Assembly (NCBI RefSeq): GCF_006345805.1
Contig: NC_042999.1
Span: 82,274,001 to 82,338,000 of the forward strand
From: Octopus sinensis
Lineage: Eukaryota
Length of the DNA stretch: 64,000 nt
Direction: 5' to 3'
The notes under the pieces were generated by a model that was not told where the DNA came from, made no database searches, and saw only the letters and a list, made by a program, of their open reading frames with translations. Within the stretch, counting starts at the first letter, position 1; each line of letters opens with the position of its first letter. A program made the position numbers and the translations under genes. Below are positions 3,469-63,784 of this stretch, in pieces.

Positions 3469-6400
3469 CTTCGTAACACAGAGTAGGTAAAAATGCCTCG
3501 GGGTCTTTAGTCATCAGTCAAGTCACAAGAAGGAAATCAGACAGATAATACTTTCCTTAAGACGAACGCTATGCCCAATAACGCAGCTTTTTGCAAGACA
3601 TCAATCTTGCATGTGATTTCCAATTGCCTTAAAAAGTTTTCAAGTTTCAATGCGATTGAGACCAACGCTCCGATCGCCACTGGTATCACTTTTACATTAC
3701 CCTCTTGCATTCCATACAGTCTTGTCATTTCCAGTTTTAATTTGGAGTACTTGGTGATTTTTTAAACCTCTTTACTCACAACATTCATGTCATTTGGTAT
3801 GGCTCCATCAATGATTTGACAGTATTTGTCTCTCTTATTCAATATGACATAATCGGCTGACGGTGTTCGATTACACGATCCGTCTGAAAATCATTGTCGC
3901 AGAGCATCATTACTCTTCCATCCTCCTGCATAACTTTACGTGGTACATGCTCATACCATTTCTGTGTTACTTTATATTAATATTTACGGCATAAGAGCCA
4001 ATGAAGATATACACACACACTTTATGGTGGTAGCGCTTGCTTGTACTCTTTTTGTGCAAGGCTCTCACATCCACTTACCATGTGAGTCGCACTTTCCACA
4101 CTCTTTCCACAGTCTGCATTTTTGGGTGTCAGAAGATTTAAACATGTTATACTTCACTGAATTGGTAGCGAGAGCCTGGTCTTCAGCAGCAATGATCAAG
4201 CTTTCGGTGGTACGCTTCAAATCACATCGCTCAAGCTATGCTCACGGTACTGTATTATCCTTAACGTTTTGTGTATTCCTTTGAAACTATCCATGCATTC
4301 TCATTTCAAGAAGGTCTTCTTTTCTCTTCGCCTCAGCTCTTTGGTTAAACTTTTCGTTGCACATCATTTCATCTGCATTTATACCCCTATCTATCGCGGC
4401 AGGTCTTCATCAGTATTTATCAAATACTCGGTAAGCGTTCTTCTTTCACTCCTTATACAATGTTCTATACTAATTAGTCCCCTGCCACCATTCTGTCTTT
4501 TCATATATAGTCTGTTTATGTTTGCTTTGGGGTGTAGCGCCCCATGCAGCGTTCTCAACTTTCTCGTTCTTCTATCGAATGTTGATATTTCCTCTTTTGT
4601 CCATTTGAGTATGTACCTACTATATCTGACTACTGCAAATACCTAGCTATTCTTTGTGGTAATCAAATTTTCTGCATTCAGGTTGGATTTCAACACTATC
4701 TTCACCCTTTCTTGATAAGCCTCGCTGACATTGACTTTCATTTCTCTGTATAGAATGCCCTCCAGCTCCAAAATCCCTAAATATCTAGGCCCACTACCGT
4801 CGGATTCACCCATGGTCTCTCCTAATGTTAACCGTAATCCTCTGTAGGATACTTTATTCCCTCTTTTCATATTAAGTACTGAGCATTTGGTAATCCCAAA
4901 TTCCATGCCGATGTCCCTCCCACACTTCTGGGCTGTTTTGGTTAAGGAATCTATCTGTTTTTCAGATTTCCCAAACAATTTCAGGTCATCCATAAACAGA
5001 AGACGGTTCAATGATGGGCTTTTCTTTCCACATCGGCAACCCATCTTAACTTTCCTAAATGTCATTTTTATGGGTATTACTGCAAATACAAAAAGTAACT
5101 GAGAAAACGAGTCACCTTAGAAGATTTCCCTTTTAATATTAACTTCTCCAAGGAATACATTACTTGAGTACAATTTGGTTTTCCACTCTTTCATGCTATG
5201 CATCAGAAAATTGGTGGTGTTGTCAGCAACACCAATCATCTGCGGGCATTCAACGATGCAAGAATGAGGCACCATATCACATGCCTTCTTAAAGTCATGT
5301 TGGTATGATGTTTTTTACAATACCTCAAATCTGTTTTTTCGATGATCAAGAACTCTTACTACATCCTTTTTGTTCCCTTGGTAGTATTTTTTACTGTGCC
5401 ATGAAAGAGTATGACTTTGCCGCACTTCTTCCATTGTCTTCCAGATTATGTTTAGGCATGTTATGGGGCGGTAGTTTCCTACAATATTCCCCTTTCTTCT
5501 ATCTTTCATTACAAGTATAGTCCTCCTAGTCACCCTCAACGCGGGGACACACTCATTCAATTAGGCTGCTAGTCCTTCATACACCACGTGGCATCTCTTG
5601 AGCCAGAAGCCATGAATATCATCTGGTCTGGGTGCTTTCCAGTTAAGCACTTTACCCACTTGTTCTTTCACATCACCCGTGTTTATGACAATATTCTTTT
5701 GTTTCTTTTCTCCTCGTAATTCTCTGTTGATAGTTCCTATCCACATTGCATCCCCTTCATGCACCTCATTGTTTCCCCATAATCCGCTCCAGAACTCCTT
5801 GGATTTAACTGCATCAGGGTCAACATTTTCCCTATTGTCTCCTCCTAACGTTTGGAAGAATTGCTTCTTGTTATTTTTGAACAATCTGCTCTCCTCGAAC
5901 TCCTTTTTCTTTTCACAAATTTGATCTTCTGGCTTTTTGCCATGGTCCTCTGTTTTAACTGCTCTATTACTGCATCACACACGTTCTTTCATATTTTATA
6001 TTTCTTTTCTTCTCTAATTTTTCTCGGTCGGTCTTTTTCCCATTTTCCCAGTATCCTCTTACCATTGCTCAATTTTTCCTAGATCTTGCCTTGCCCCCAT
6101 TATGTCCCTTTCAATGCGTCGTGTCCACCATGGTTCGTTTGCTCCACCATATTTTGTTCTCTTAAGTTGTAACTTCTCTTCAACAAGTAGCGCAATACTC
6201 GGAGAAGATTTCTTGTTTGTCTTATGTCTTGGATGTATGGTATGACAGTATTATTCTTTTGCGCTACTTTATTTATCATATTCCTATCTACCCTTTTCGT
6301 ATTCATGGGGATTTTTCCTTCTGGATCATTCATCAAGTCGGTGAGTCATCTTTGAATTTCAAGCAACTCATTATCTAGTTGATTCATTCCCCTGCATTTC

Positions 6401-19934: not shown

Positions 19935-20180
19935 GATTTCAAATTTTGGCACAAAGCTAGCAATTTCGGGGTAAGGGCTGTGAATTAAATCGATCCCAAT
20001 GTTCGACCTTGGCGGCATTTGACTCAGAACATAAAGACGGACGTAATGCCGCTCACGATGTGCTAACGAATCTTATTTCTTTACTACCCACAAAGGGCTA
20101 CACACAGAGGGGACAAACAAGGACACATAATTATATCGACCCCAGTGCGTAACTGGTACATATTTAATCGACCCCGATTA
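19935..20180 (-). mobile_element. SINE family A, two fused partial copies
   Basis: TTTCAAATTTTGGCACAA tail, ATCGACCCC, GGCGGCATTTGACTCAGAAC; second unit matches 59367-59480. Confidence 0.8.
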
Positions 20181-24303: not shown

Positions 24304-24308
<5 letters not shown>

Positions 24309-24518
24309 CCAAAATGACATAGTAGTAGGGAGTGAGAGAAAGAGTAGTATAAGTAAAGGGAGAGGAGAGAAAATAGTAATTCAGTGAAGGAGAAGTAGTG
24401 AGAGTAATAGCCGTGACTGAGAGAGAGTGAGAGAAAGTAATAGCAATGAGAGTGAAAGTAATTGCTGTGATACGAACACAGTTTAGGAGTGTATTTATAT
24501 ATATTTTTGTCATCATGT

Positions 24519-24549
<31 letters not shown>

Positions 24550-25125
24550 AATACATATATAGGTATATGTATGTATATGTATATATATGTACATATATAT
24601 GTATGTATGGATATATATATATATATGAATAATTTACAAAATAAGGGCAAAAACAATATTCTAATGCTAAATATGCCGATAAAAAGACAAAATTATCAAT
24701 AACGTCTCGAAACAAACCGATAGAAATTTCTTAAAAATCTGTTATTACCGTATTGGTCCCAATTTCGGGGTTAATTCATAAAAATGTTCCCCTCTTCAGC
24801 GATAAATACGTGAGATATAAGTGAAATACTTACGTATTTATCGCTGAAGAGGGGAAAATTCTTATGAATTAACCCCGAAATTGGGACCAATACGGTAATA
24901 ACAGATTTTAAAGAAATTTCTATCGGATTGTTTCGAGACGCATAAATTATAATGGTTATTGACAATTTTGTCGTTTTATCGGCATATTTGGCATTAGAAT
25001 GTTGCTTTTGCCCTTATTTTGTAAATTATTTATAAATTTAACCTTTAAAGGTATTTTTTGATATGCTGGCCATTGATAAAAATTTTTTCACGAAAAAAAT
25101 TTTATCCTACATTAGTTATATATAT

Positions 25126-25158
<33 letters not shown>

Positions 25159-25372
25159 TTGTCCAAAATGACATAGTAGTAGGGAGTGAGAGAAAGAGTA
25201 GTATAAGTAAAGGGAGAGGAGAGAAAATAGTAATTCAGTGAAGGAGAAGTAGTGAGAGTAATAGCCGTGACTGAGAGAGAGTGAGAGAAAGTAATAGCAA
25301 TGAGAGTGAAAGTAATTGCTGTGATACGAACACAGTTTAGGAGTGTATTTATATATATTTTTGTCATCATGT

Positions 25373-25403
<31 letters not shown>

Positions 25404-25969
25404 AATACATATATAGGTATATGTATGTATATGTATATATATGTACATATATATGTATGTATGGATATATATATATATATGAATAATTTACAAACTAAGG
25501 GCAAAAACAATATTCTAATGCTAAATATGCCGATAAAAAGACAAAATTGTCAATAACGTCTCGAAACAAACCGATAGAAATTTCTTAAAAATCTGTTATT
25601 ACCGTATTGGTCCCAATTTCGGGGTTAATTCATAAAAATGTTCCCCTCTTCAGCGATAAATACGTGAGATATAAGTGAAATACTTACGTATTTATCGCTG
25701 AAGAGGGGAAAATTCTTATGAATTAACCCCGAAATTGGGACCAATACGGTAATAACAGATTTTAAAGAAATTTCTATCGGATTGTTTCGAGACGCATAAA
25801 TTATAATGGTTATTGACAATTTTGTCGTTTTATCGGCATATTTGGCATTAGAATGTTGCTTTTGCCCTTATTTTGTAAATTATTTATAAATTTAACCTTT
25901 AAAGGTATTTTTTGATATGCTGGCCATTGATAAAAATTTTTTCACGAAAAAAATTTTATCCTACATTAG

Positions 25970-25970
<1 letters not shown>
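24304..25970 (+). repeat. Tandem duplication, period 854 bp (24304-25116 and 25158-25970), units bounded by (TA)n
   Basis: Near-identical copies; differences seen: CAAAATAAGG/CAAACTAAGG and AATTATCAAT/AATTGTCAAT. Confidence 0.97.
24628..25030. repeat. ~400 bp palindrome (MITE-like fold-back); second copy at 25482-25884
   Basis: AATAATTTACAAAATAAGGGCAAAA..TTTTGCCCTTATTTTGTAAATTATT; ~185 bp arms, ~15 nt central spacer, ~15 nt insert in the right arm. Confidence 0.95.
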
Positions 25971-26818: not shown

Positions 26819-27090
26819 TCTGGCCGCCAAGTTCTGGCTAAGAAAGAATATATTCACTGACACGACAGAGTTGGGGCTTATATACACGAGAGTTGGGTCT
26901 TATATGCTAACACTACGAAACAGAAAAAAAGATAGTATATGAACACCCCAGAAAATGAGAAGGCCTTCCTTTAATCTTGTTTTTTTCAATCACAAGTTCA
27001 TTAGTAAACTTTTTCGTTCTTTTCAGAGCAAATTACTATTTTCTTGATCAGATCGGTTCTGATGCTATACAACATCAATCAATAAAGACT

Positions 27091-27297
27091 AAGGCGGCGA
27101 TCTGGCAGAACTGTTACCACGCCAAGTATAATGCTTAACGGCATTTCGTCTGTGTTTATGTTTAAATTCTGCTAATGTCGACTTAGCTTTTCATCCTTTT
27201 GAGGTCGATAAAATAAGTCCCAGTAGAGCAGTGGAATCGATGTTTTCGATTTATCCACTCAATTACATTGCTGGCTTTGTGCCAAAATTTGAAGCCA
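27091..27297 (+). mobile_element. SINE family A
   Basis: Head AAGGCGGCGATCTGGCAGAA; body TTTCATCCTTTTGAGGTCGATAAAATAAGT; tail TTGTGCCAAAATTTGAA. Confidence 0.85.
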
Positions 27298-27434
27298 ATA
27301 ATGTGTGAAGAGTAAAATGAGATCTCATGGTGTTCATGCTATTATATGAACAAGAATATTTTCATAGTAAATTTTGAAGACCTGTTTTAACAACGAATGA
27401 AGGCGGAACTGAACACAGCAGAAAGAGTACTTAC

Positions 27435-34980: not shown

Positions 34981-35188
34981 AAGGCAGAAGAATCGTTAGC
35001 ACGGCGAGCAAAATGCTTAGGCGGATTTCGTCCGTTTTCAGGTTCTCATTTCGAATTCCACGGATGTCGAGCTTGCCTTTCAACCTTTCGGTGTCAATAA
35101 AATAAATACGAGTTGAGCGCCGGAGTCAACGTAATCGACCTACTCCTTGCCCGCACTTGATGACCTTGTGCCAAAATTTGAAGTCAAT
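34981..35188 (+). mobile_element. SINE family A
   Basis: AATCGTTAGCACGGCGAGCAAAATGCTTAG..GCCTTTCAACCTTTCGGTGTCAATAAAAT..CTTGTGCCAAAATTTGAA. Confidence 0.85.
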
Positions 35189-35229
35189 ATATGCGTACAT
35201 ATATATATGTATTGTTGTATTGTTATTTT

Positions 35230-36182: not shown

Positions 36183-36265
<83 letters not shown>

Positions 36266-36271
36266 CACATA

Positions 36272-36307
<36 letters not shown>

Positions 36308-36351
36308 TGTATCGTACATACATATATATACATGCATACACACGTACGTGC

Positions 36352-36411
<60 letters not shown>

Positions 36412-36494
36412 ATAGATAGATAGAAAGATAGAGAGATAGATAGATAGATACATACATACATACATACATACATACATACATACATACATACATA

Positions 36495-37748
36495 CAGGGG
36501 CTGGACAAAATAATAGAAACACCTTAAAATTTCAAACCAATTATTTTTAAAATATGGGTTAGGACCGCCATTGGCAGTAATTACAGCTTGAATTCTACGA
36601 TGTATGGACTCGTACAAAGTTTGACATGTCTCCAAAGGAATTTTTGTCCATTCTTCAGCTAAAACAGTCTCCAGTTCTTCTAGTGATGATGTTGGTGGAT
36701 ATCGACTCCTTACTTGTTTTTCTAAAATGCACCATAAATGTTCAATAATACAGAGATCTGGGAACTGTGGTGGCCAGATAGGATGTTCAACTTCACAAGG
36801 ATGTTCCTCGTGCCACTCAGTAATAACTTTAGTTGTGTGATTTGGTGCATTATCTTTCTGAAAGATTGCGTTTCCATCCGGAAATAATTCCGCAACCATA
36901 GGATGAATTTGATTAGATAAAATGCTTAAATAGTCTTCGCTATTAATTCTGCCATGAAGGGAAACCATTGGGCTGGCATATTTCCAAGATATAGCCTCCC
37001 CCCCCCCATCATCACAGATCCTCCTCCATGTTTAACAGTCGGAAGAAGGTAGTCTAGGTCAAATGCTTCTTTTGGCTGTCTCCACACGTATACTCGGCCG
37101 GTGGTCGGAAATAAGATAAAGGATGACTCATCCGAGAACATAACATTCTTTCACTGTTCTAGGGACCAATTCTATAGGTTTTTACTCCACTCCAAACGCT
37201 TTGCAACATTTGCTTTTGAAAGTACTATTTTCTGATTGCAGTCCTCCCATAAAATCCGGCTTTTGTGCAGCTCCCAGTGAACAGTTTTTCTGAAAAGTTG
37301 GTTCTCGAAGTGGTGATTAAGCTCTGCAATAATTTTGGGAGATGTACTTTTGTGATCCTTTCTAACAATTCACGTAAGAAAGTTTTGGTTATCTTCCGGA
37401 GTTTTATTTCGACAAGGAGGTTTTTCCCTCTTTCTCAAAGACTGTCATTACTTTCGAGGCAGTACTTCTTGATACACCAAACATTTCGGCTGTTTTCGAT
37501 ACAAACAATTTGACCTCTTTGAAAGTCCGATAGATCTGTCATTTTAATGAATTTTAATTACCTTTTTCTGGTGACATCTGAAAAGAAACAGCAATTTTAG
37601 CAAAACATATTAAGCAACATTAATAATAATAAATCAAATACTAATAAATCAAAAACATTAAAATAAAGAAGTTTTTGACGGTTTTATAGATACTTCCAAA
37701 TTATGATCTTATGATGCTAAGAGTTTCAATTATTTTGTCCAACCCCTG
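36495..37748 (-). mobile_element. Tc1-like (DD34E-type) DNA transposon with both TIRs and TA TSD; transposase frameshifted and internally deleted
   Basis: TA-CAGGGGCTGGACAAAATAATAGAAAC..GTTTCAATTATTTTGTCCAACCCCTG-TA; motifs FSDES, TVKHGGGSVM, FQKDNAP, WPPQFPDLCIIEHLW. Confidence 0.96.
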
Positions 37749-42129: not shown

Positions 42130-42537
42130 CGCAGGAGTGGCTGCGTGGTAAGTAGCTTGCTTACCAACCACATGGTTTCAGGTTCAGTCACACTCCGTGG
42201 CACCTTGGCCAAGTGTCTTCTCCTATAGCCTCGGGCCGATCAAAGCCTTATGAGTGGATCTGGTAGATGGAAAGTGAAAGAAGCCCGTCGTATATATTAT
42301 GTGTGTGTGTTTGTGTGTCTGTGTTTGTCCCCCCACCTTCAACAACGCTTGACATCCGATGCTGGTGTGTTTACATCCCCGTAACTTAGCGGTTCGGCAA
42401 AAAGAGACCGATAGAATAAGTACTAGGCTTACAAAGAATAAGTCCTGGAAATCGATTTGCTCGACTGAACAGTGGTGCTTCAGCATGGCCGCAGTCAAAT
42501 GACTGAAACAAGTAAAAGAATAATAGAATAAAAGAAT
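42127..42537 (+). mobile_element. SINE family B, full length
   Basis: GGCGCAGGAGTGGCTGCGTGGTAAG (A box), AGGTTCAGTC (B box), internal (TA)(TG) tract, LINE-like tail ending TAAAAGAA repeats. Confidence 0.93.
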
Positions 42538-44558: not shown

Positions 44559-44994
44559 GCGCAGGCGTGTCTGTGTGGTGAGAAACTTACTTCCCAATCA
44601 CATGGTTCCAGGTTCAATCCCACTGCGTAGCACTTTGGGCAACTGTCTTCTATTAAGGCCTCGGGCCGACCAAAACCCTTGTGAGTGGATTTGGTAGGCG
44701 GAAACTGAAAGAATCCCGTCGTATATATATATGTGTATGTGTGTGTGTATGAATTATGTATCTATTATGTATGTATTTGTGTGTCTGTGTCTGTCCCCAC
44801 CACCATCGCTTGACGAGTGATGTTGGTGTATTTACGTCCCTGTAACTTAGCAGTTCGGTAAAAAAGACCGATAGAATAAGTACTACGCTTACAAAAAATA
44901 AGTCCTGGGGTTCATTTCTTCGACTAAAGACAGTGCTCCAACATGGCCGCAGTCAAATGATTGAAACAAGTAAAAGAATAAAAGAAATAAAAGA

Positions 44995-50882: not shown

Positions 50883-51456
50883 GGGACTTAATTCTAGCCT
50901 GCAGAACTCACTGGTCTGAAGCAACAATAATGTTATCAATGTTTACTTTATTGATTAGATGCTATGAGACCTCAATGAAGACAAAGATGATGAAATAGAA
51001 ATGAAGAACTGGTGATGATAAATGAGAAATTATTTCTAGCTTTCGGTTAAAATAATTTTGTAGTTATAACTTCAAATATATTTCAGAACTAGTCTATAAT
51101 ACAATTCCGTGTATAGAATTTGGTATTTTCATTTTATATTTATGTAATTTGTTGTACAAATGTCTTCATTCTAAATTATGTTTCCAGTGAACATTTGATC
51201 GGCTCGTTGACCCACTTCTCCAGCTCGAACTGTCAATACGAAGCGTATTGTTTATAAAAGCATGACATGGAATCAAACTGGTAAATGACGAAGAACAAGA
51301 GGCATCTGGCATTTTACTTCATATGTTGTTTACAAAGTCTACAGCGTAGTATAGTGCGAGTTAATGAGAGATCCTTGAAATCACTCGGCCTATTAAAAAA
51401 TAGCAACTAAGTCTCCCTCAAATCAGGCTCACCAACATTGCAAACATTCTTTTCAT

Positions 51457-51850
51457 TTATTTTATTTGTTTCAGTCATTTGACTGCGGCCATGCTAGAGC
51501 ACCACCTTTAGTCGAGCAAATTGGCTCCAGGACTTATTCTTTGTAAGCCTAGTACTTATTCTATCGGTCCCTTTGCCGAACCACTAAGTGACGGCGGCGT
51601 AAACACACTAGCGTCGGTTGTCAAGCGATGTTGGAGGGGGACAAACACAGATACACAAACATATACATATACACACACACACAGACACATATATATATAT
51701 ACATATATACGACAGGCTTTTTACAGTTTCCGTCTACCAAATCTACTCAGAAGGCTTTGGTCGACCCGAGGCTATTGTAGAAGACACTTGCCCAAGATGC
51801 CACGCAGTGGGACTGAACCCGGAACCATGTGGTTGGTAATCAAGCTACTT
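51457..51850 (-). mobile_element. SINE family B whose head is split by a 2 kb insertion; remainder at 53899-53931
   Basis: Colinear with 42127-42537 up to AAGCTACTT; the missing ACCACACAGCCACTCCT is found at 53915-53931. Confidence 0.92.
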
Positions 51851-53898
51851 TATTTCATAAGATTTGCCACTAGGGCAGTACAAAGAGTAGCTGCGGGCTG
51901 GACAAAACACATTAATGAATGATGGTGATGGATGAAGATGGTGATGGGAGAAAACGATAGCGCCCGCCGACTTTCGCTTCTCTAAGACATTGTTCTTTTT
52001 TTCAAATTTTGACAAAAATTCAATAAATTATTACAAATTTTAAAAGAGGCAATAAACCTCTTTTTCAGTATAATACAAAATGTTCAATAGGCCTATGTAA
52101 CCCGGCCGCCCGTCGCTCTTGCCTCACCGAGGCAATAATCGCTGGTCAGGTCGTGGTCCAAAGGTATAATTTGGAATGAGTCCATCGGGAAGGAACCCAC
52201 GATCCTGCCTAGATTACCCCTCCGCATGACCTCCGCAGCCAGCTGCGAAGGCCACCCGGGGTCCTCCGTGCAGGACCTAAGTCCCTCCCAATGTCCTCCC
52301 TTTCTCGTTTTACGCACTGTATTTTCCACTGTTCCTCCTTTGAAAAAGAGGAGCACACATTTCTCCACAAATTGTCCCTCAGGCGGCACACCCGCCCGAG
52401 AAGACTTGGGAGACGCCGTCTGCGTATCACAATCCGCCGGCGGCGTTCCGCTTCTCTTTTTTTTCTTCTTTTTGCCTTGGGCCACGGGAGGTTGAGGTTC
52501 CGGAGTTGCACACACCGAGTTCTCTTCTCCTGCAGTTTCCAGGTCTTTTGGTGGGTCGCCATTGCTCCCCACTTTTCTTTTTCTTTTGGAGGAAGTCTTT
52601 GCTTCCTCACTCTGTTTCTCTCCCTCCATTGGGGGGGAGCAGGGAGAGGCTCCGATATCAACTGCTCCAGGATCCTACTTTGGTCCCTGGGGCAGTTCTT
52701 CTTATTGTGGTCGGTCTCCAGACACAGGTGACACTTGGGGGGGGCGTCCCTCAAGCAACACCGGATACCTGTACCCGGCCATCCTCAGAAAGTCCGGCAA
52801 GACCAGACTTTTGGTTGATTGGGTCCATAGGGTCAAAGTGGCCTTTGACCCCTCCCAATCAGCCGCAGGCTGTATTTTCACATTTAGGAGCTTGGCGCTG
52901 CTACCACCCAGACCCCGGCGGATAGAGTCCTCTATCCACTCGGGTTCAATGCCGGGTGGTAGGCCGCAGATCCACGCTCTCAACAATTTTTCTCCCTTGT
53001 AGTTAGGGAGAAACAAAATCTCCTTGCCCTCAATGGGCTTGCTTGCAAAGTCGCAAGCTGCTTTAGGGGAGTAAAACAGCAACCAAACCGTTGCGTATTT
53101 GACTCCCCGTGCAATGTATTTAACGGCTGGCATATGGTCTGCCAGCTCGTTAATGATAGTTGCCTTTGGAAAGACAGCTATGGTGTTGAGTGACTTTGAA
53201 TAAGTCCTCAACACCACGGTCTTGTCCTCTAGCTCCTTCAAGTATTTTTTGGGAGGTGCTAGGTCCCACACAATAAGTTCCTTTGCCATTTTGTAACGGA
53301 ATCCAATAAAAGTTCAACAGGTGTAATAAAATAAATACGATAGACAGAGTGAGAAGAGAAAACACAACAGAAGAGAAGAATTACAATAAAAATGACAGTT
53401 CAAAAAGAGTTCTTTTTTAAATAAAAGATAGCTGGAAGGAAGAGAGTTCAAATTTGGCAAAGGAATTAATTTTTTGGCCGAAAAGTACTCCTGGCCAAAC
53501 GTCCAAAACAGTCCTTGGTTACTCTTGGTGCTTCTTGGTAAATCCAAAAAAACAGTCCTTGAATATCCTTGGTGCTTCTTGGTAAATCCAATTTGAATTA
53601 ATTTTTGAGGAGGGGCTACGCCTCCTCAAAAAACACAATTCTCACTGCAAAGTGGGTCTTTATACCCGACAACAGGCAGGAAAAAATACCTGGAGCAAAG
53701 TGAAGTTTATTACCTGCTAAAAAATATTAATGCTAAATAACATTAAATGCTAAAAACATTAAAAGCAAGCAATAAACCTCACTAAGCTCTTAAAAATATA
53801 AAACGCCTACCTGTCGTCGAGTCAAAAAGTTCAACAAAAGTTCAATAATTCACGTAGCAGCACGTGACATTTGGAGCAGCCAAAAAAACACGTCTGTC
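51851..53898 (-). mobile_element. ORF1-only non-LTR retroelement (L1/Tx1-like, HAL1-type architecture), 2048 bp, 16-17 bp TSD
   Basis: TSD TGGTAATCAAGCTACTT (51834-51850) / TGGTAAGAAGCTACTT (53899-53914); ~610 bp 5' UTR, single ORF, ~240 bp 3' UTR ending in AATAAA. Confidence 0.85.
52093..53289 (-). pseudogene. Gag-like ORF1 protein (~398 aa if two compensating homopolymer frameshifts are corrected) with a CCHC zinc knuckle
   Basis: ORFs 53289-52702, 52754-52209 and 52629-52093 join at G8 (52737-52744) and G7 (52631-52637); CHLCLETDHNKKNC = CX2CX4HX4C. Confidence 0.82.
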
Positions 53899-54826
53899 TG
53901 GTAAGAAGCTACTTACCACACAGCCACTCCTATATGTAAAGAAAGTGAGATGATCATGGATTGCTTGCCTTTTAATTTTGATCCTGCTGAAAACTGATCT
54001 TGGTCTAAATAACAACAAAACTGATGGCAAGTTTGCGTATTCATATGGTTTCGCTGTGAAATGGTCTGAATTGTACTCGTCGCTACATTTGCATTGAAAA
54101 TGTTCTTTGAGCAAGCTATGCATCTCATTTGTATGGGAGCGTCTTCAAACAATAGGTACATTTCTTCTCTGTATTAACACATACAGAAAGGCTGAAAATA
54201 TAAGAGCAAAGTGTGTGACACTGATATTGCTGCTGTTGTTATTGATATTGCAGTTTTGTTGTTGATTTTGTTTTGTTGTTGTTTTTTTTCAGTTCATGAC
54301 ATACTTAATTGAGCAGACACAAACGTTTGCCAGCTATGAGGAACTTTATATATTTTTCAAAGCGATGTATTAAGATTGCATTAACCAATACGTGGAAATG
54401 TGGTTGGATGGTCTTTTTAGCTGCTAAAACTACTACTTAGAGGCAACCTAGATGGGTTGGATATTTTAGCGATAGTTCTAAAGCGAACAATAATTATAAG
54501 AAAATATAATTCAAAAGGCACAATATCTTGTTCGAAAACTACATATAGCATATTTCTGTATCAGTGAGAGAAGCTGCTTCGTATTTATTCATACACCCAT
54601 ATTCGTGCACACATGCACACACACCCTTATAAGTAAATAAATATATATATATATATAAATCTATGTCTGTATGTATGTGTGTATGTATGTATGTATGTAT
54701 GTATGTATGTATGTATGTATGTATGTATGTATGTATGTATGTGCGTATGTATGCATACGTGTACAAATATATTTATATGAATATATATATATATAATATA
54801 AATGCTTATGTCTGTATATATGTATG

Positions 54827-58779: not shown

Positions 58780-59590
58780 CCGATCTGGCAGAAACGTTAG
58801 CAAACCGGGCGAAATTAAGTACCAGTTGCGTAATCGGCTAGCTCCCTCCCAAAAAATTCGAGCATTGTGCCTGGAGTAGTAAAGTATATTGTAATCTTAT
58901 GAGTTCAAATTCCTTTGCCTTTCATCCTTTCGGGGTCGATACATTAAGTAGCAGTTGCCTACTGGCCTTGTGCCTAGAGTAGAAACGAATATTCTTTCCT
59001 CCACTAGGCACAAGGCCCGAAAATTTGGGAGAGGGTGCCAGTCAATTAGATCGATTCCAGTACGCACTTGTACTTGACTTATCGAGCCCCAAAGGGGGAA
59101 AGACAAATTTGACCTCGGCGGAATTTGACCTCAGAACGTAGACAGATGAAATACCTACAAGAATTTCTCCCGGTGTGCAAACGTTTCTTCTTTCTTTACT
59201 GTCCACAAGGAGCTAAACATAGAGGGGACAAACAAGTACAGACAAACGAATTCAGTCGATTACATCTGTGCGTAACTGGTACTTAATTTATCGACCCCGA
59301 AAGGATGAATGGCAAAGTCGACTTCGGTGGAATTTGAACTCAGAACGTAACGGCAGACGAAAAACTTATTTCTTTACTACACACAAGGGGTTAAACACAG
59401 AGAGGACAAACAAGGACAGACAAACGGATTAAGTGGATTATATCGACCCCAGTGCGTAACTGGTAGTTATTTAATCGACCCCGAAAGAATGAAAGGCTAA
59501 GTCGACCTCGGCGGAATTTGAACACAGAACGTAAATAGCGCCAAGCATTTCGCCCGGCGTGCTAACGCTTCTGCCAGCTCGCCGCCTTGG
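58780..59590. mobile_element. Cluster of five SINE family A units: two plus-strand partials (58780-58990), then three head-to-tail minus units (58993-59590)
   Basis: Recurrent ATCGACCCCGAAAG.ATGAA.GGC.AAGTCGAC.TCGG.GGAATTTGAAC.CAGAACGTA with ~180 bp spacing. Confidence 0.9.
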
Positions 59591-59866
59591 AGTAGAAAAA
59601 AATACTCTAAGTCTTATGACTCTGGAGGAAGACCTAATTCTATCAATTTTTCATGTTTCATTTGTTGCTCTTTCTTTCTAAAATCGTTATCGATGAATCT
59701 GAATGAATTGTTTCAAATCAACTTGCTATGTGCATTCACTTTGTTATCTGCGTTCTGCAATGCGGCAATTGCCACCAAAGCAGTGATATCACCGTTAAAT
59801 CCACACGAGCCAATAAAAAGAGAAGTTGCTATAGGAGGCGCTAGACCTAACTAAGCTATATTTATA

Positions 59867-60078
59867 TTGGTTTCAAATGTTGGCACAATGCCTGCAGACC
59901 TGGGGGAGTGAATAAGTCGCTTACATCGACCCCCTGGGTTCAAACTGGTTCTTATTTGTTCGATCCCGAAAAGATGAAAGGCAAAGTCGACGTGTGTGGA
60001 ATTTGACCTCAGACAGACGAAATACCGCTAAGCATATTTGCCCAGCGTGCTAACGATTCTGCCTGCTCGCTACCTTAA
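59867..60078 (-). mobile_element. SINE family A, full length, with apparent TSD TAAGCTATATTTAT
   Basis: Family motifs; TAAGCTATATTTAT at ~59852 and ~60076. Confidence 0.88.
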
Positions 60079-61141
60079 GCTATATTTATTCTAGCATTTC
60101 AATTAATTCTTTGAAACAGTACAAACATTTTGTAAGTTGCATAATTAACATTTTGGCGTAGATGCTTAATTTCGTATTTAATTATGTCAAAGAAAGACAA
60201 CGTATTCATATTAATTGGCTATAGTGGGATAAAGATACAGAACAAACTCAGTGAAAAACATTTGAACTATAGATACAATAGTCTGCACATTAGACGCCCC
60301 AATTAAGTCAGCTTGGTGTTGCTTTATTATCCACTATATATCTAGTCAAATATATATTTATAATTACGACTTATTTTAGTTTTTTTTAATGCTGTAAATG
60401 TGCAGCGGTGTAAGCTGGTAGAGTTAATCGAATTCTGTATATCACTGGGACTTTTTAAACTCAAGTCAAACAGAGATTGAACTAAACACAAAGAAAATTT
60501 AGTTCGATAATGATCTACTGTTTCTGCCTTTTCACTGTCTTCCTAAACTACAAAGAAATATCACAAGATATATAAAGCAACTGAACTAACCGAACATAAT
60601 TCTATAATACCATTTTAATCTCACGCAATACGGTTTTTTCCTTTCATGTCAAAACGAAATTTTCGAAAAAATAGGACACAAGAATAAAATTGAAATTCAT
60701 TTTATTTTACTATGATGAAATTTTTCTCCATGTTTCGAATAAAATGATTGCCTCTCTGCCAAAAATAGAAGAAAATACTTTACATTTCACTGGTCTTTTT
60801 GAAAGAAACAATTTCAAGTCTATTTTTTCTGCCCCGTTGATTACCTTAACTAATCAGATCATACTCTACTACACACCAGGAGACAAATACACAAAAGACA
60901 AATATCTTTTTCAAAGTCGAACGGTTCAGAAAGAAAAAAAAAAGTAATAAATAAATGAAAGAAGTTAGGGCATTATTTTTAGTTGTTTATTTACCAACGG
61001 TGAGGAAATATAAATCTGAAGGGAAAAAAATATGTCGCCAGGAGCTGGTGCGACATCGTTCACTGATGCAATTTGAATTTCCGGGGAATATATATGTATT
61101 CGTGTATATGCGGTTGCTTGCATATATGTGTGTCTGTATAC

Positions 61142-61305: not shown

Positions 61306-62904
61306 GCGTGTGAGTGTGTGTGTGTGTCTGTGTGTGTGTGTATATGCATTATACAACTATATATATATATATATATTATATATATATATATATATGTATG
61401 TCTCTGTGTGTGTGTATATGCATTATATATGTATGTTTGTGTATATATATATAGGCACAAACACGCCCACACATCAGGGCATGATATATTTACACCGATA
61501 AGAAAAGTTATTACACTCTTACACGCGTTCGTTCAAATATGCTTATATTTTTCATGTAGTTTCTTTCATTAGACATTAACCCACGCATCACTTTATACTT
61601 TATATGCAATACAAAATAATTGTTCTGCACACTCACAAACACACATTCATAAACACAAAAACACATATATATGTATGTGTGTGGACATATTTATATGAAC
61701 TTTGTATAAGGATTCTACTGAAGTAAATACGTTATATGTTTCCATTCTTTTATATTTAAAGATAGAGATTCTGAAATGTATATGTATGTGTGAACGCAAG
61801 CGTGTGTTTTAGTGTGTGTGTGCTCGTATGCGTACGCACATGTTTTCAGCGTTAGGCAGTCGCTGTTCTAAAATTCAATATAACAACATTAATAAGCAGA
61901 AAAATAGACTATATTTAGTTTATATAAGAAATGAGAAATTCAAAAGTTAATAATAATCTAGTCCACTTCATTTTTACCTTTACTTTTCGAGGACCAAAAC
62001 AGTGCTTTAAAATGCACCAAGTTGTGCAGAAGACATCTAACTAAATTCCTTAGAATAAATCTGCTGAATATTAAATCTAATTTTGAAGAAATCTTATAAC
62101 ATATGAAACTTTTTTTATGAGAGTATTTTATTTACTTTTGTGACTAAAAAACGTCTAGCATATTTACAAAAGAAGCAACAGTATACGATAAAACTTTGAT
62201 TTTTCGTTTCAATTTCACTACTGCCTATCAATATGAAACTTCTCCAAACGAAAGAGATATTGAGAAAAATTGACAAGTTGAATTAAAGAAATAGATGGTA
62301 TTTTTGCCGTTTATTTTTTTCCTGTTTTTCTATTTAATATTCCTGTGAATATAGATATTTGGATTGTTTTAAATTCATTGGAAGACCTGAACTCCATAGT
62401 TCAGTATTTTTTTTTCGTCTTTACCGACAGTGTCAATACTGTTTATCACTCGTTAGCAGATTCACTTAAAGAAATATCAAATAGTTGATGATATATATTT
62501 ACAGTTTTCGTTTGAGTCAAAATAAATTCATGTATTTTCTTGATAAAAGAAGGGAAGGAACGGAGAAATTGGATGTTGTAACGTTCATGCTTGCTTTCTA
62601 ACAATAGAAAGCAACTAAATATTTGCAATGAGCATTAAAATTAAAACTACTCACTACAGTTGTCTGAAGCTAACTTTTATTCTACGGTTCTTGAGCTCAT
62701 TGCAACAAATTTTAACTGACATTTGCCAGATTCTTTGCATGAAAACTAGTAAATATTTTTTGAAAAATCAGTACATGTAAAAGTAACCAGCAAAATTTCA
62801 TCGATGTCTATCACTATGAAAATCCTAGCATCGTATTTGCAGCTTGCCCGAAGCCTAACGCATGTTTTATAACACTTATCAATATAAATTTAATATATCC
62901 TTTT

Positions 62905-63112
62905 TACTAAAGGCACAACGCCTGAAATTTGGAGGAAGGAGACTAGCTGAGGTCATCGATTCCAGTGTTTCACTGGTACTTAATTTGACAACCCCGAAAG
63001 GATGAAAGGCGAAGTCAACCTCGGCGGAGTTTGAACTCAGAAAGTAGAGACGGGCGAAATACCGCTAAGCATCTTGTCCAGCGTGCTCACGATCCTGCCA
63101 GCTCACTGCCTT
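62905..63112 (-). mobile_element. SINE family A, full length
   Basis: ACCCCGAAAGGATGAAAGGCGAAGTCAACCTCGGCGGAGTTTGAACTCAGAA..CTGCCAGCTCACTGCCTT. Confidence 0.9.
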
Positions 63113-63784
63113 GAATAAATTCAGTATATGCTATAACGCAAATATAGACGGCATCACGAAGTTCAACAATTTCTAATGTAAATCAAATTCTTAGATAAAA
63201 TATTCTTGGATTCAACTAAGAGTGGAAATCGGGATATAATTAATGGATTTAATTCTAAACGGTTTTTATTTCATAAATTTAAAATGAAATGGCGTTAAAA
63301 ACCTACCACACACAGAGAGACACGTATACAAAAACGTACAGCTATTTGCTAGTCAAATCGCTGCAATATATGTTTGACACAAGCCACATAACAGTAGGAC
63401 AGTGCTAATGTTTGTGATAAGATATTTTATGCATGGAACTGAAAAATGTAAAGTGATCGAAACATATGCAACATGTTTCCTGTTCCTGCTGCAAGAATAA
63501 AATGTGATATTGGCCATTTCATCACAGTATATAATTTTTGTAGTTATCTTCTACTAATTTGATAACTCAGGCCCTATGTAATACTCTTGAACACCACTGG
63601 TTAATCTTGTTACATTAAGTATTTTACATCTCTCCCGAGATATAACATTTTGTTCAGCGGGTTTTGAACTCATAACTCAATAGGAATGACCTCCAATTTT
63701 AAAAGAAATTTTGCTGGATACTCTACTCATTCTCCAAATCTCCAGACAGTTTTAATTTTATATCTGTTCGGAAGCTCAAATCGG

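Follow-up and report, generated by a model that had tools for sequence, protein, structure and literature searches.

LINE retrotransposons that carry ORF1 but lack ORF2 have already been described from three clades (PMC5786205). The mammalian element HAL1 is derived from L1 (PMC5753468), has ORF1p as its sole product and is believed to require this protein in cis together with ORF2p in trans (PMC5753468; PMC3627910). HeT-A of the Jockey clade and Ag-Sponge of the CR1 clade are likewise non-autonomous LINEs in which ORF1 is present, and their protein is proposed to multimerise with that of the partner (PMC5786205). The ORF1 proteins of LINEs differ in type: mammalian L1 ORF1p is type II, with a coiled coil, an RRM and a CTD, and is recognised as Transposase_22 (PMC4120745; PMC5203782), whereas in type I proteins one or more RRMs directly precede a CCHC knuckle (PMC4120745; the types are also set out in PMC5203782). 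Type I ORF1s occur in I, Jockey, R1, Tad1, L1, L2 and CR1, with three knuckles in those of the Jockey lineage (PMC4120745), and RRM plus CCHC ORF1s in non-mammalian animals have been described as consistent with Tx1 (PMC5203782). In the Tx1 literature consulted, many LINEs of this clade target other repeats or multicopy RNA genes, the targets described there being DNA transposons, LTR elements, snRNA, 5S, tRNA spacers, satellites and microsatellites. Target-sequence preference is judged by >20% of flanks lying in one repeat type, and the Tx1-mobilised SINE SINEU-3 has a 16-nt target-site duplication (TSD) (PMC4494074). Octopus vulgaris has 80 L1-Tx1 families (supplement of PMC13282606), 13 of which were recently active. 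Our literature search found no ORF1-only LINE from cephalopods or from Tx1.

Here we describe a 2048-bp insert (51851-53898, minus strand) that splits a SINE in a 64,000-nt stretch of Octopus sinensis DNA, referred to below as the window. Features of the insert and of its host SINE are all on the minus strand. The evidence supports a TPRT-style insertion with a real TSD, encoding a LINE ORF1-type protein and no ORF2. The insert is bracketed by a 5′ repeat copy of 16 nt (53899-53914) and a 3′ copy of 17 nt (51834-51850), which differ from each other by a single gap and a single mismatch. Taken alone such a flanking repeat would be only slightly out of the ordinary: equally good scores came from 9 of 1164 control pairs, each of two 60-nt windows placed 2068 bp apart. 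An intact SINE on the plus strand (42133-42525) provides the empty-site reference. It contains the 17-mer once, at 42150-42166, and each flanking copy is one change away from it, the 5′ copy being one base short and the 3′ copy carrying one substitution. The single occurrence of the 17-nt target in the intact SINE shows the flanking repeat to be a genuine target-site duplication and bears out the first-pass annotation of a 16-17 bp TSD around 2048 bp. The ends of the insert are not inverted repeats and no transposase family was matched, which speaks against a DNA transposon with terminal inverted repeats (TIRs). No second copy of the insert exists elsewhere in the window; with its ends read from this single copy, the element appears to be complete at its 5′ end.

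The host SINE is represented by a 17-nt 5′ stub upstream of the insertion (53915-53931), which bears an A-box-like motif and corresponds to the start of the SINE at 42133, and by a remainder downstream (51457-51833), which is 80% identical to that SINE at 42150-42520 and has a B-box-like motif, a microsatellite middle and an A-rich tail. Stub and TSD together match the start of the intact SINE at 32 of 34 nt, and the two SINE parts are collinear, overlapping by exactly the 17-mer. ARAGORN predicted no tRNA anywhere in the window, and within 51400-54000 no Rfam family reached its gathering score, so the label 'tRNA-like' for the SINE head rests on the A- and B-box-like motifs. A TSD of the host SINE itself was not found, the best candidate being equalled by 984 of 1000 shuffles. 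This SINE family covers 2011 of 64,000 bp of the window, and the one insert copy, a single copy only, lies within it. The position inside the tRNA-like head was missed by the earlier annotation and offers a lead on target preference; no tRNA-derived SINE head figures in the list of Tx1-clade targets given above. Elsewhere in the window there is an 854-bp tandem duplication, 99.6-100% identical.

The insert contains an ORF with its ATG at 53289 and a TAG at 52093-52095, spanning 1194 nt or 398 codons and broken by two opposite frameshifts. The first falls in a C8 run (52737-52744) and the second in a C7 run (52631-52637); uncorrected, the first frame stops after 195 aa. The zinc knuckle is encoded between the two runs in a different frame, which stays open to 52209, meaning that the sequence alone does not compel the second frameshift. 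The matter is settled by P0001, the product of Octopus sinensis LOC115225585, which is identical to the encoded protein at 175 of 275 residues and runs continuously across both frameshifts. Its tail aligns to the original frame with a score of 114, reached by 0 of 2000 shuffles, against a score of 26 for the continued knuckle frame, reached by 848 of 2000 shuffles; we therefore accept the second frameshift. The earlier description of a zinc-knuckle ORF of about 398 aa, stop-free once two opposite indels are corrected, is thus upheld. The stop-free stretches are not due to chance, as shuffling produced comparable lengths in 0 of 5000 cases for the 184-codon piece, 1 of 5000 for a 178-codon piece and 49 of 5000 for the last 96 codons. 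No nonsense codon occurs in the three ORF pieces despite the two frameshifts, and simulated neutral decay at 2-4% left no stop in 15-39% of runs. The copy is probably not brand new, a divergence of ~2-4% fitting best, and if the frameshifts are real it is now inactive.

The first ORF piece (184 aa from the ATG; 52738-53289) contains two predicted RRM domains and is identical to P0001 at 128 of 184 positions. A structure model of P0001 has a pLDDT of 82-95 per 10-residue block at residues 11-130 and 63-82 at 131-190. Foldseek with this model returned 114 matches at E≤0.001, tandem-RRM proteins on top, and VIA-align placed one RRM on each P0001 domain: that of La (Z 9.4, rmsd 2.5 over 83 residues) and RRM1 of U2AF65 (Z 8.2, rmsd 2.4 over 73 residues). 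A viral fold library yielded generic giant-virus RRM proteins, which carry no clade information. As leads only, the ESM Atlas linked the RRM piece to clusters without names, largely from arthropods, at 0.92 and 0.91, and to RRM_1 and DUF4780 clusters below 0.9. The second piece (33 aa; 52638-52736) holds one intact CX2CX4HX4C zinc knuckle with a weak Pfam match to zf-CCHC_2 (E 0.029) and protein-family profile matches to TUT7, ZCCHC8 and nucleocapsid knuckles. The predicted fold is therefore RRM-RRM before a single CCHC knuckle, the arrangement of a type I LINE ORF1p, with the RRMs taken from the P0001 model and fold searches and the knuckle read from the window sequence. Apart from this, Pfam, PHROGs and PDB sequence searches with the window pieces gave nothing significant, and a word-index search among longer proteins with the RRM piece returned 0 of 890 candidates.

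Downstream lies a charged, Pro/Ser-rich linker of 82 aa with basic runs (52384-52629), which has 18% hydrophobic residues, is identical to P0001 at 27 of 58 aligned residues and is likely disordered. The 96-aa C-terminal region that follows (52096-52383) is probably coding. It is as unfamiliar as the first-pass annotation had stated, with no homolog or confident fold: the word-index search among longer proteins gave 0 of 99 candidates at E≤1, the ESM Atlas no usable match, and Foldseek no match at E≤0.001 from a single-sequence model whose mean pLDDT of 40.8 makes it uninformative on fold.

Searches recovered 12 related proteins, that is 13 matches minus the repetitive P0002 (2178 aa), which we dropped as unrelated, plus P0014. 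The ORF thus comes from a diversified family. We excluded P0005 from the alignments because it is chimeric, containing part of an integrase. The four relatives with source names are all from Octopus; three carry the label 'uncharacterized' and the fourth 'EPM2A-interacting 1-like', so no name marks a transposon protein. P0001, P0003, P0004 and P0014 share the RRM-RRM-knuckle-linker layout of the window ORF. In P0001 the first knuckle Cys is missing and the protein stops at the basic run, leaving the C-terminal region without independent support. P0004 and P0014 carry ~90 extra N-terminal residues and are 22-28% identical, and P0014 has its own C-terminal tail; a likeness between this tail and our C-terminal region was rejected, because 629 of 5000 shuffles score as well. 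The relatives do not demonstrate an absence of ORF2, since their sequences come with no genomic surroundings and ORF1 is a separate frame in autonomous LINEs too.

The ORF is preceded by a leader of 609 nt (53290-53898) that starts with G, is 40% T, includes three upstream ATGs and splice-donor-like motifs, and contains two copies of a 43-nt direct repeat lying 44 nt apart (53505-53591; 91% identical). We presume it to be a 5′ UTR with an internal promoter. The TAG is followed by a 3′ UTR of 242 nt (51851-52092) in two parts, ~100 nt at 22% GC and then sequence at 43-46% GC. The first-pass annotation ended this region at AATAAA; the trailer and hexamer (51849-51854) are there, but the last two A's belong to the TSD. 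A 3′ poly(A) tail is a mark of L1-type insertion, and none is present at the 3′ end of the insert, where there are three A's, two of them within the TSD. A 3′ stem-loop in the trailer was not significant (z -1.5 and -0.2). The earlier statement that no endonuclease or reverse transcriptase remnant remains also stands. Pfam found no ORF2-type family, and neither EN nor RT, in nine frames or pieces of the element and no family in overlapping plus-strand ORFs; PDB sequence searches with the C-terminal piece and the longest 3′ UTR frame gave nothing significant, and no ORF2 fragment was found at either end of the trailer. Unless ORF2 was lost after insertion, this copy could not have supplied its own reverse transcriptase.

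With its 5′ UTR-ORF1-3′ UTR layout, its TSD and, in this copy, an ORF1p without ORF2p, the element resembles HAL1, and the earlier label 'HAL1-like' is sound as an analogy. As a statement of membership it fails. The octopus ORF1p belongs to type I (RRM-RRM-CCHC) and has an additional C-terminal region, whereas the L1 parent of HAL1 is type II, and Transposase_22 was not matched in the element or homolog searches. The insert further differs from HAL1 in its octopus host, in lacking a poly(A) tail and in being known here from one copy. HeT-A and Ag-Sponge share with it an ORF1 in a non-autonomous LINE; however, the octopus element has one knuckle where the Jockey lineage has three, and is interstitial with a 17-nt TSD, whereas HeT-A is telomeric (PMC5537684). 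The same RRM/CCHC type of ORF1 is found in the Tx1-clade LINEs Tx1, Keno, Kibi, Koshi, Mutsu, Dewa and Tx1-Mar. These are autonomous, while SINEU is non-coding, and the octopus element differs from both. The ORF1 type alone does not fix the LINE clade of the insert, because type I ORF1s span many clades and the insert carries no RT.

The reading we prefer, which in our judgement has about an even chance of being right, is that the insert is a copy of an ORF1-only non-autonomous LINE family, probably L1/Tx1-derived and mobilised by the ORF2 of a partner. An ORF1-only LINE is favoured by the TSD with an empty site in the interrupted SINE, the lack of TIRs, the bridging of both frameshifts by P0001, the predicted RRM-RRM-CCHC layout, the diversified set of related proteins and the trailer free of ORF2 fragments. 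The Tx1 link draws on the ORF1 type, the L1-Tx1 families of octopus and the 16-nt TSD of SINEU-3. Against a family stand the single copy in the window, the missing poly(A) tail and the absence from the window of a partner sharing the 3′ end, the best matches to the last 142 nt being ≤13 nt, a simple repeat aside. If the element behaves like HAL1, HeT-A and Ag-Sponge, RNA polymerase II would transcribe it from its own leader, and its ORF1p would coat that RNA in cis, perhaps assembling together with the ORF1p of the partner. Endonuclease and reverse transcriptase would be borrowed from an autonomous, probably L1/Tx1-type, partner, for which the L1-Tx1 families of octopus are candidates. The partner ORF2p would nick the target at a TT/A step and prime on the terminal A's beside AATAAA, and a second nick 17 nt away would generate the TSD.

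An unlikely but substantial alternative is a one-off retrocopy, in which a short RNA from an autonomous LINE, polyadenylated or spliced once past ORF1, was inserted in trans by an ORF2p, with no self-propagating family. Premature polyadenylation of L1 RNA is established, and the insert ends exactly at AATAAA, occurs once and has a real TSD. However, no start of ORF2 was detected in the 242 nt after the stop, a long stretch for an inter-ORF spacer, and there is no residual sequence or tail beyond the hexamer. If this explanation holds, the insert is an ordinary dead retrocopy. It is improbable that a full-length LINE inserted and then lost ORF2 by internal deletion in this one copy. The differences between the TSD copies show it to be old enough for such a change, and the two GC classes of the trailer might be expected if a spacer were fused to a 3′ UTR; yet both breakpoints must miss ORF2 wholly, no EN, RT or C-terminal remnant was detected, and random deletion would usually leave a fragment, none of which was found at the trailer ends. 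We consider it quite improbable that the insert is a retrocopy of a domesticated ORF1-derived octopus gene, in parallel with L1TD1, rather than of a transposon. Homologs annotated as Octopus gene models, the long leader with splice-donor-like motifs and three ORF pieces free of nonsense codons suit that origin, but the damaged, early-ending P0001 and the integrase chimera P0005 look like gene models on decayed repeats, and the many divergent paralogs and missing poly(A) also argue against it. An origin other than retrotransposition (DNA-level insertion, recombination of two SINE copies or a misassembly mimicking a TSD) is highly improbable, for although the host SINE has no detectable TSD, the TSD copies are imperfect and the tandem duplication could reflect assembly problems, the SINE parts overlap by exactly the 17-mer and what was inserted is a LINE ORF1 laid out 5′-to-3′ as expected, ending in A's and lacking TIRs.

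A bolder form of the ORF1-only reading, to which we give little weight, is a Tx1-derived family homing to one fixed site, a hairpin of 21 nt within the tRNA-like head of a SINE that is abundant in octopus. Such a protein-coding parasite would borrow a LINE enzyme and use the SINE as a safe harbour, and the unclassified C-terminal ORF1 domain may help to choose the partner or target. If true, ORF1-only LINEs would have arisen independently a fourth time, and for the first time in molluscs in the literature searched. The ORF1-only design is known from mammals and insects and is here likely in octopus, from one copy only. That Pfam missed the ORF and that its relatives are labelled 'uncharacterized' Octopus genes flags transposon ORF1s annotated as host genes. 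If the insert does represent a family, L1, Jockey and CR1 would be joined by a fourth LINE lineage that lost ORF2 but kept ORF1; the list of Tx1-type targets would also grow if its copies share the SINE-head site. Such a family would back the view that ORF1p is required in cis by some non-autonomous elements, and would offer a system with a type I ORF1p for testing it.

A 2048-bp insert on the minus strand (51851-53898) lies in animal DNA that is AT-rich and has many microsatellites, and it splits a SINE of ~400 bp, leaving 17 nt upstream and the remainder downstream. It is flanked by repeats of 17 nt (51834-51850) and 16 nt (53899-53914), which align with a single gap and a single mismatch. 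Taken alone, this flanking repeat is equalled by 9 of 1164 control pairs. We identify it as a target-site duplication (TSD) because the insert splits the SINE and an intact SINE copy (42133-42525) holds the 17-mer once; this empty site supports the TSD-flanked insert of the first-pass annotation, which is real and well observed. Across the window, the TSD sequence recurs within two edits only at the two junctions, the empty site and a palindromic self-overlap at 53903. The insert ends 3' in AATAAA, with the last two A's inside the TSD and no poly(A), and the junction implies a first nick at a TT/A step. A TSD of the host SINE itself was looked for and not found, which counts against a tidy history.

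The target site sits in a hairpin whose stem is 9 bp long. This 21-nt hairpin of the SINE head (51834-51850, 53899-53914, 42146-42166) has a 3' edge that coincides exactly with the end of the TSD, and we presume that the motifs flanking it are A-box-like and B-box-like; neither ARAGORN nor Rfam called a tRNA in the SINE head. The SINE family covers 2011 of 64000 bp of the window, and a single insertion into it is suggestive at most of a target preference. Two of four flank-checked SINE copies (42133-42525 and 44563-44981) have (TA)n microsatellites on both sides, which suggests that the family favours TA repeats.

The ORF of the insert runs from an ATG at 53289 to a TAG at 52093-52095, exactly 398 codons. 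As written, its first frame stops after 195 aa, and a CX2CX4HX4C knuckle lies in a different frame between a C8 run and a C7 run. The knuckle frame is open up to 52209, so the second frameshift required outside evidence. An exhaustive protein search gave 13 matches at E<=0.001, the closest named proteins being from Octopus sinensis and O. vulgaris, which makes an octopus the likely host. The best homolog, P0001 (the O. sinensis LOC115225585 product), shares 128/184, 20/33 and 27/58 identical aligned residues with the insert in three pieces. It is unbroken across both C runs, and its tail aligns in the original frame with a score that 0 of 2000 shuffles equal, whereas 848 of 2000 equal its score in the knuckle frame, so the two opposite frame corrections proposed in the first-pass annotation are right. 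The two changes between the TSD copies together with zero stop codons best fit a divergence of ~2-4% (the joint probability is 0.046 at 2%, 0.035 at 4%, 0.010 at 0.5% and 0.006 at 8%), an age at which real slippage is a plausible source of the frameshifts. Just past the ORF1 stop, ~80 nt (52004-52081, minus) resemble part of the element's own 5' leader (53720-53804) with a score of 45, matched by 9 of 1000 dinucleotide shuffles; this likeness, found post hoc, may reflect a regulatory motif common to both stretches, duplication long ago, or chance in AT-rich sequence.

A structure model was built on P0001, in place of the window protein, with a 13-row alignment; residues 11-190 reached a pLDDT of 63-95 per block. 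Foldseek returned 114 matches at E<=0.001, tandem-RRM proteins first (for example hnRNP A1 UP1, E 2.4e-5). By VIA-align each half matches an RRM, with hits to La (Z 9.4, rmsd 2.5, 83 residues) and U2AF65 RRM1 (Z 8.2, rmsd 2.4, 73 residues); Pfam gave no match for the RRM piece of the insert ORF. A profile of the family picks up the CCHC knuckles found in TUT7, ZCCHC8 and nucleocapsids. Database entries filed as host genes of Octopus include LINE ORF1-like proteins (P0001, P0003, P0004, P0014 and P0005); one is named 'EPM2A-interacting 1-like', and in P0005, which has no name, an ORF1-like start is fused to an integrase fragment.

The C-terminal 96 residues are probably coding. Only 49 of 5000 shuffles keep these codons stop-free, which counts for coding; the codon-position score is highest in this frame (-0.2 vs -6.9 and -11.4; equalled by 103 of 2000 shuffles), and the ORF stop marks a drop in GC, from 57% before it to 22% after it. 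P0001 terminates at the basic run, which counts against. No homolog appeared among 99 candidates drawn from longer proteins, the ESM Atlas, Pfam or the PDB, and the likeness to the post-linker tail of the paralog P0014 is not significant. The structure model of the region is unusable (pLDDT 40.8), and a search with it found no fold match.

Pfam searches of nine pieces or frames, with the 26-33 aa 3' UTR frames outside the scan, found no endonuclease, reverse transcriptase (RT) or ORF2-type family, and PDB sequence searches found no ORF2 trace, in agreement with the remnant-free element first described. RT sequence in the window is confined to one decayed fragment (4643-5116), and nothing else in the window resembles the last 142 nt of the element more closely than chance would allow. 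Decayed LINE ORF2 fragments at 4643-5974 (minus; weak RVT_1 match, E 6.5e-5), which we take from their motifs to be RTE-like, have no end in common with the element.

Other repeats lie elsewhere in the window. An 854-bp tandem duplication (24305-25116 and 25159-25970; 99.6-100% identity), with a MITE-like 403-bp imperfect palindrome (86%) per unit, is either recent or an assembly artefact. A DDE transposase fragment (36261-37031, minus; DDE_3, E 4.3e-8) is presumably Tc1/mariner-like, and a 127-aa frame (1488-1871, minus) with no Pfam match resembles, we assume, the C-terminus of a CR1/L2-type ORF2. Copies of a second dispersed family (59006-60090, 62896-63113, 27077-27300, 34989-35191, 20002-20177) are 66-85% alike.

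The hallmarks of insertion, the layout of the ORF and the absence of ORF2 are observed. Beyond them, the most likely reading, at about even odds and resting on one copy, is that the insert represents a non-autonomous LINE that encodes ORF1 only. No second copy occurs elsewhere in the 64-kb window. The foremost rival, if an unlikely one, is that a LINE transcript which had ended prematurely was retrocopied just once. Deletion of ORF2 after insertion is less probable again, and retrocopying of a domesticated ORF1 gene slightly more doubtful still. Terminal inverted repeats are absent, and a non-retro event or misassembly is very improbable.

An RRM before a CCHC defines type I LINE ORF1p (PMC4120745), and RRM-CCHC ORF1s of non-mammalian animals have been described as fitting Tx1 (PMC5203782). 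Other repeats are frequent targets of Tx1 families (PMC4494074; PMC3706591), and octopus is rich in L1-Tx1, with 80 families, 13 of them recently active, and SINEs forming 11.6% of the genome (PMC13282606; also PMC8967140). Tx1 affinity is a lead, not a result, because RRM-CCHC ORF1s occur in many clades. The bolder idea of an ORF1-only Tx1 family that targets the SINE head and carries a new domain is a long shot. In the literature searched, neither cephalopods nor Tx1 were listed with an ORF1-only element, and Repbase, Dfam or the curated O. vulgaris library may already include the family.

Non-autonomous elements that have ORF1 are of three kinds in Kojima's list: HeT-A, derived from Jockey, HAL1, from L1, and Ag-Sponge, from CR1 (PMC5786205). 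HAL1, with several origins in mammals, encodes ORF1p only (PMC5753468), and is proposed to use ORF1p in cis and ORF2p in trans (PMC3627910). The label HAL1-like, applied at first pass, holds for the way of working, which the element would share with all three, but not for membership of HAL1, whose ORF1 is of a different type. By analogy, the element would be transcribed by polymerase II from its own leader and its RNA coated in cis by its own ORF1p; a partner's ORF2p would then carry out target-primed reverse transcription, priming on the terminal A's, and the second nick would be staggered by 17 nt.
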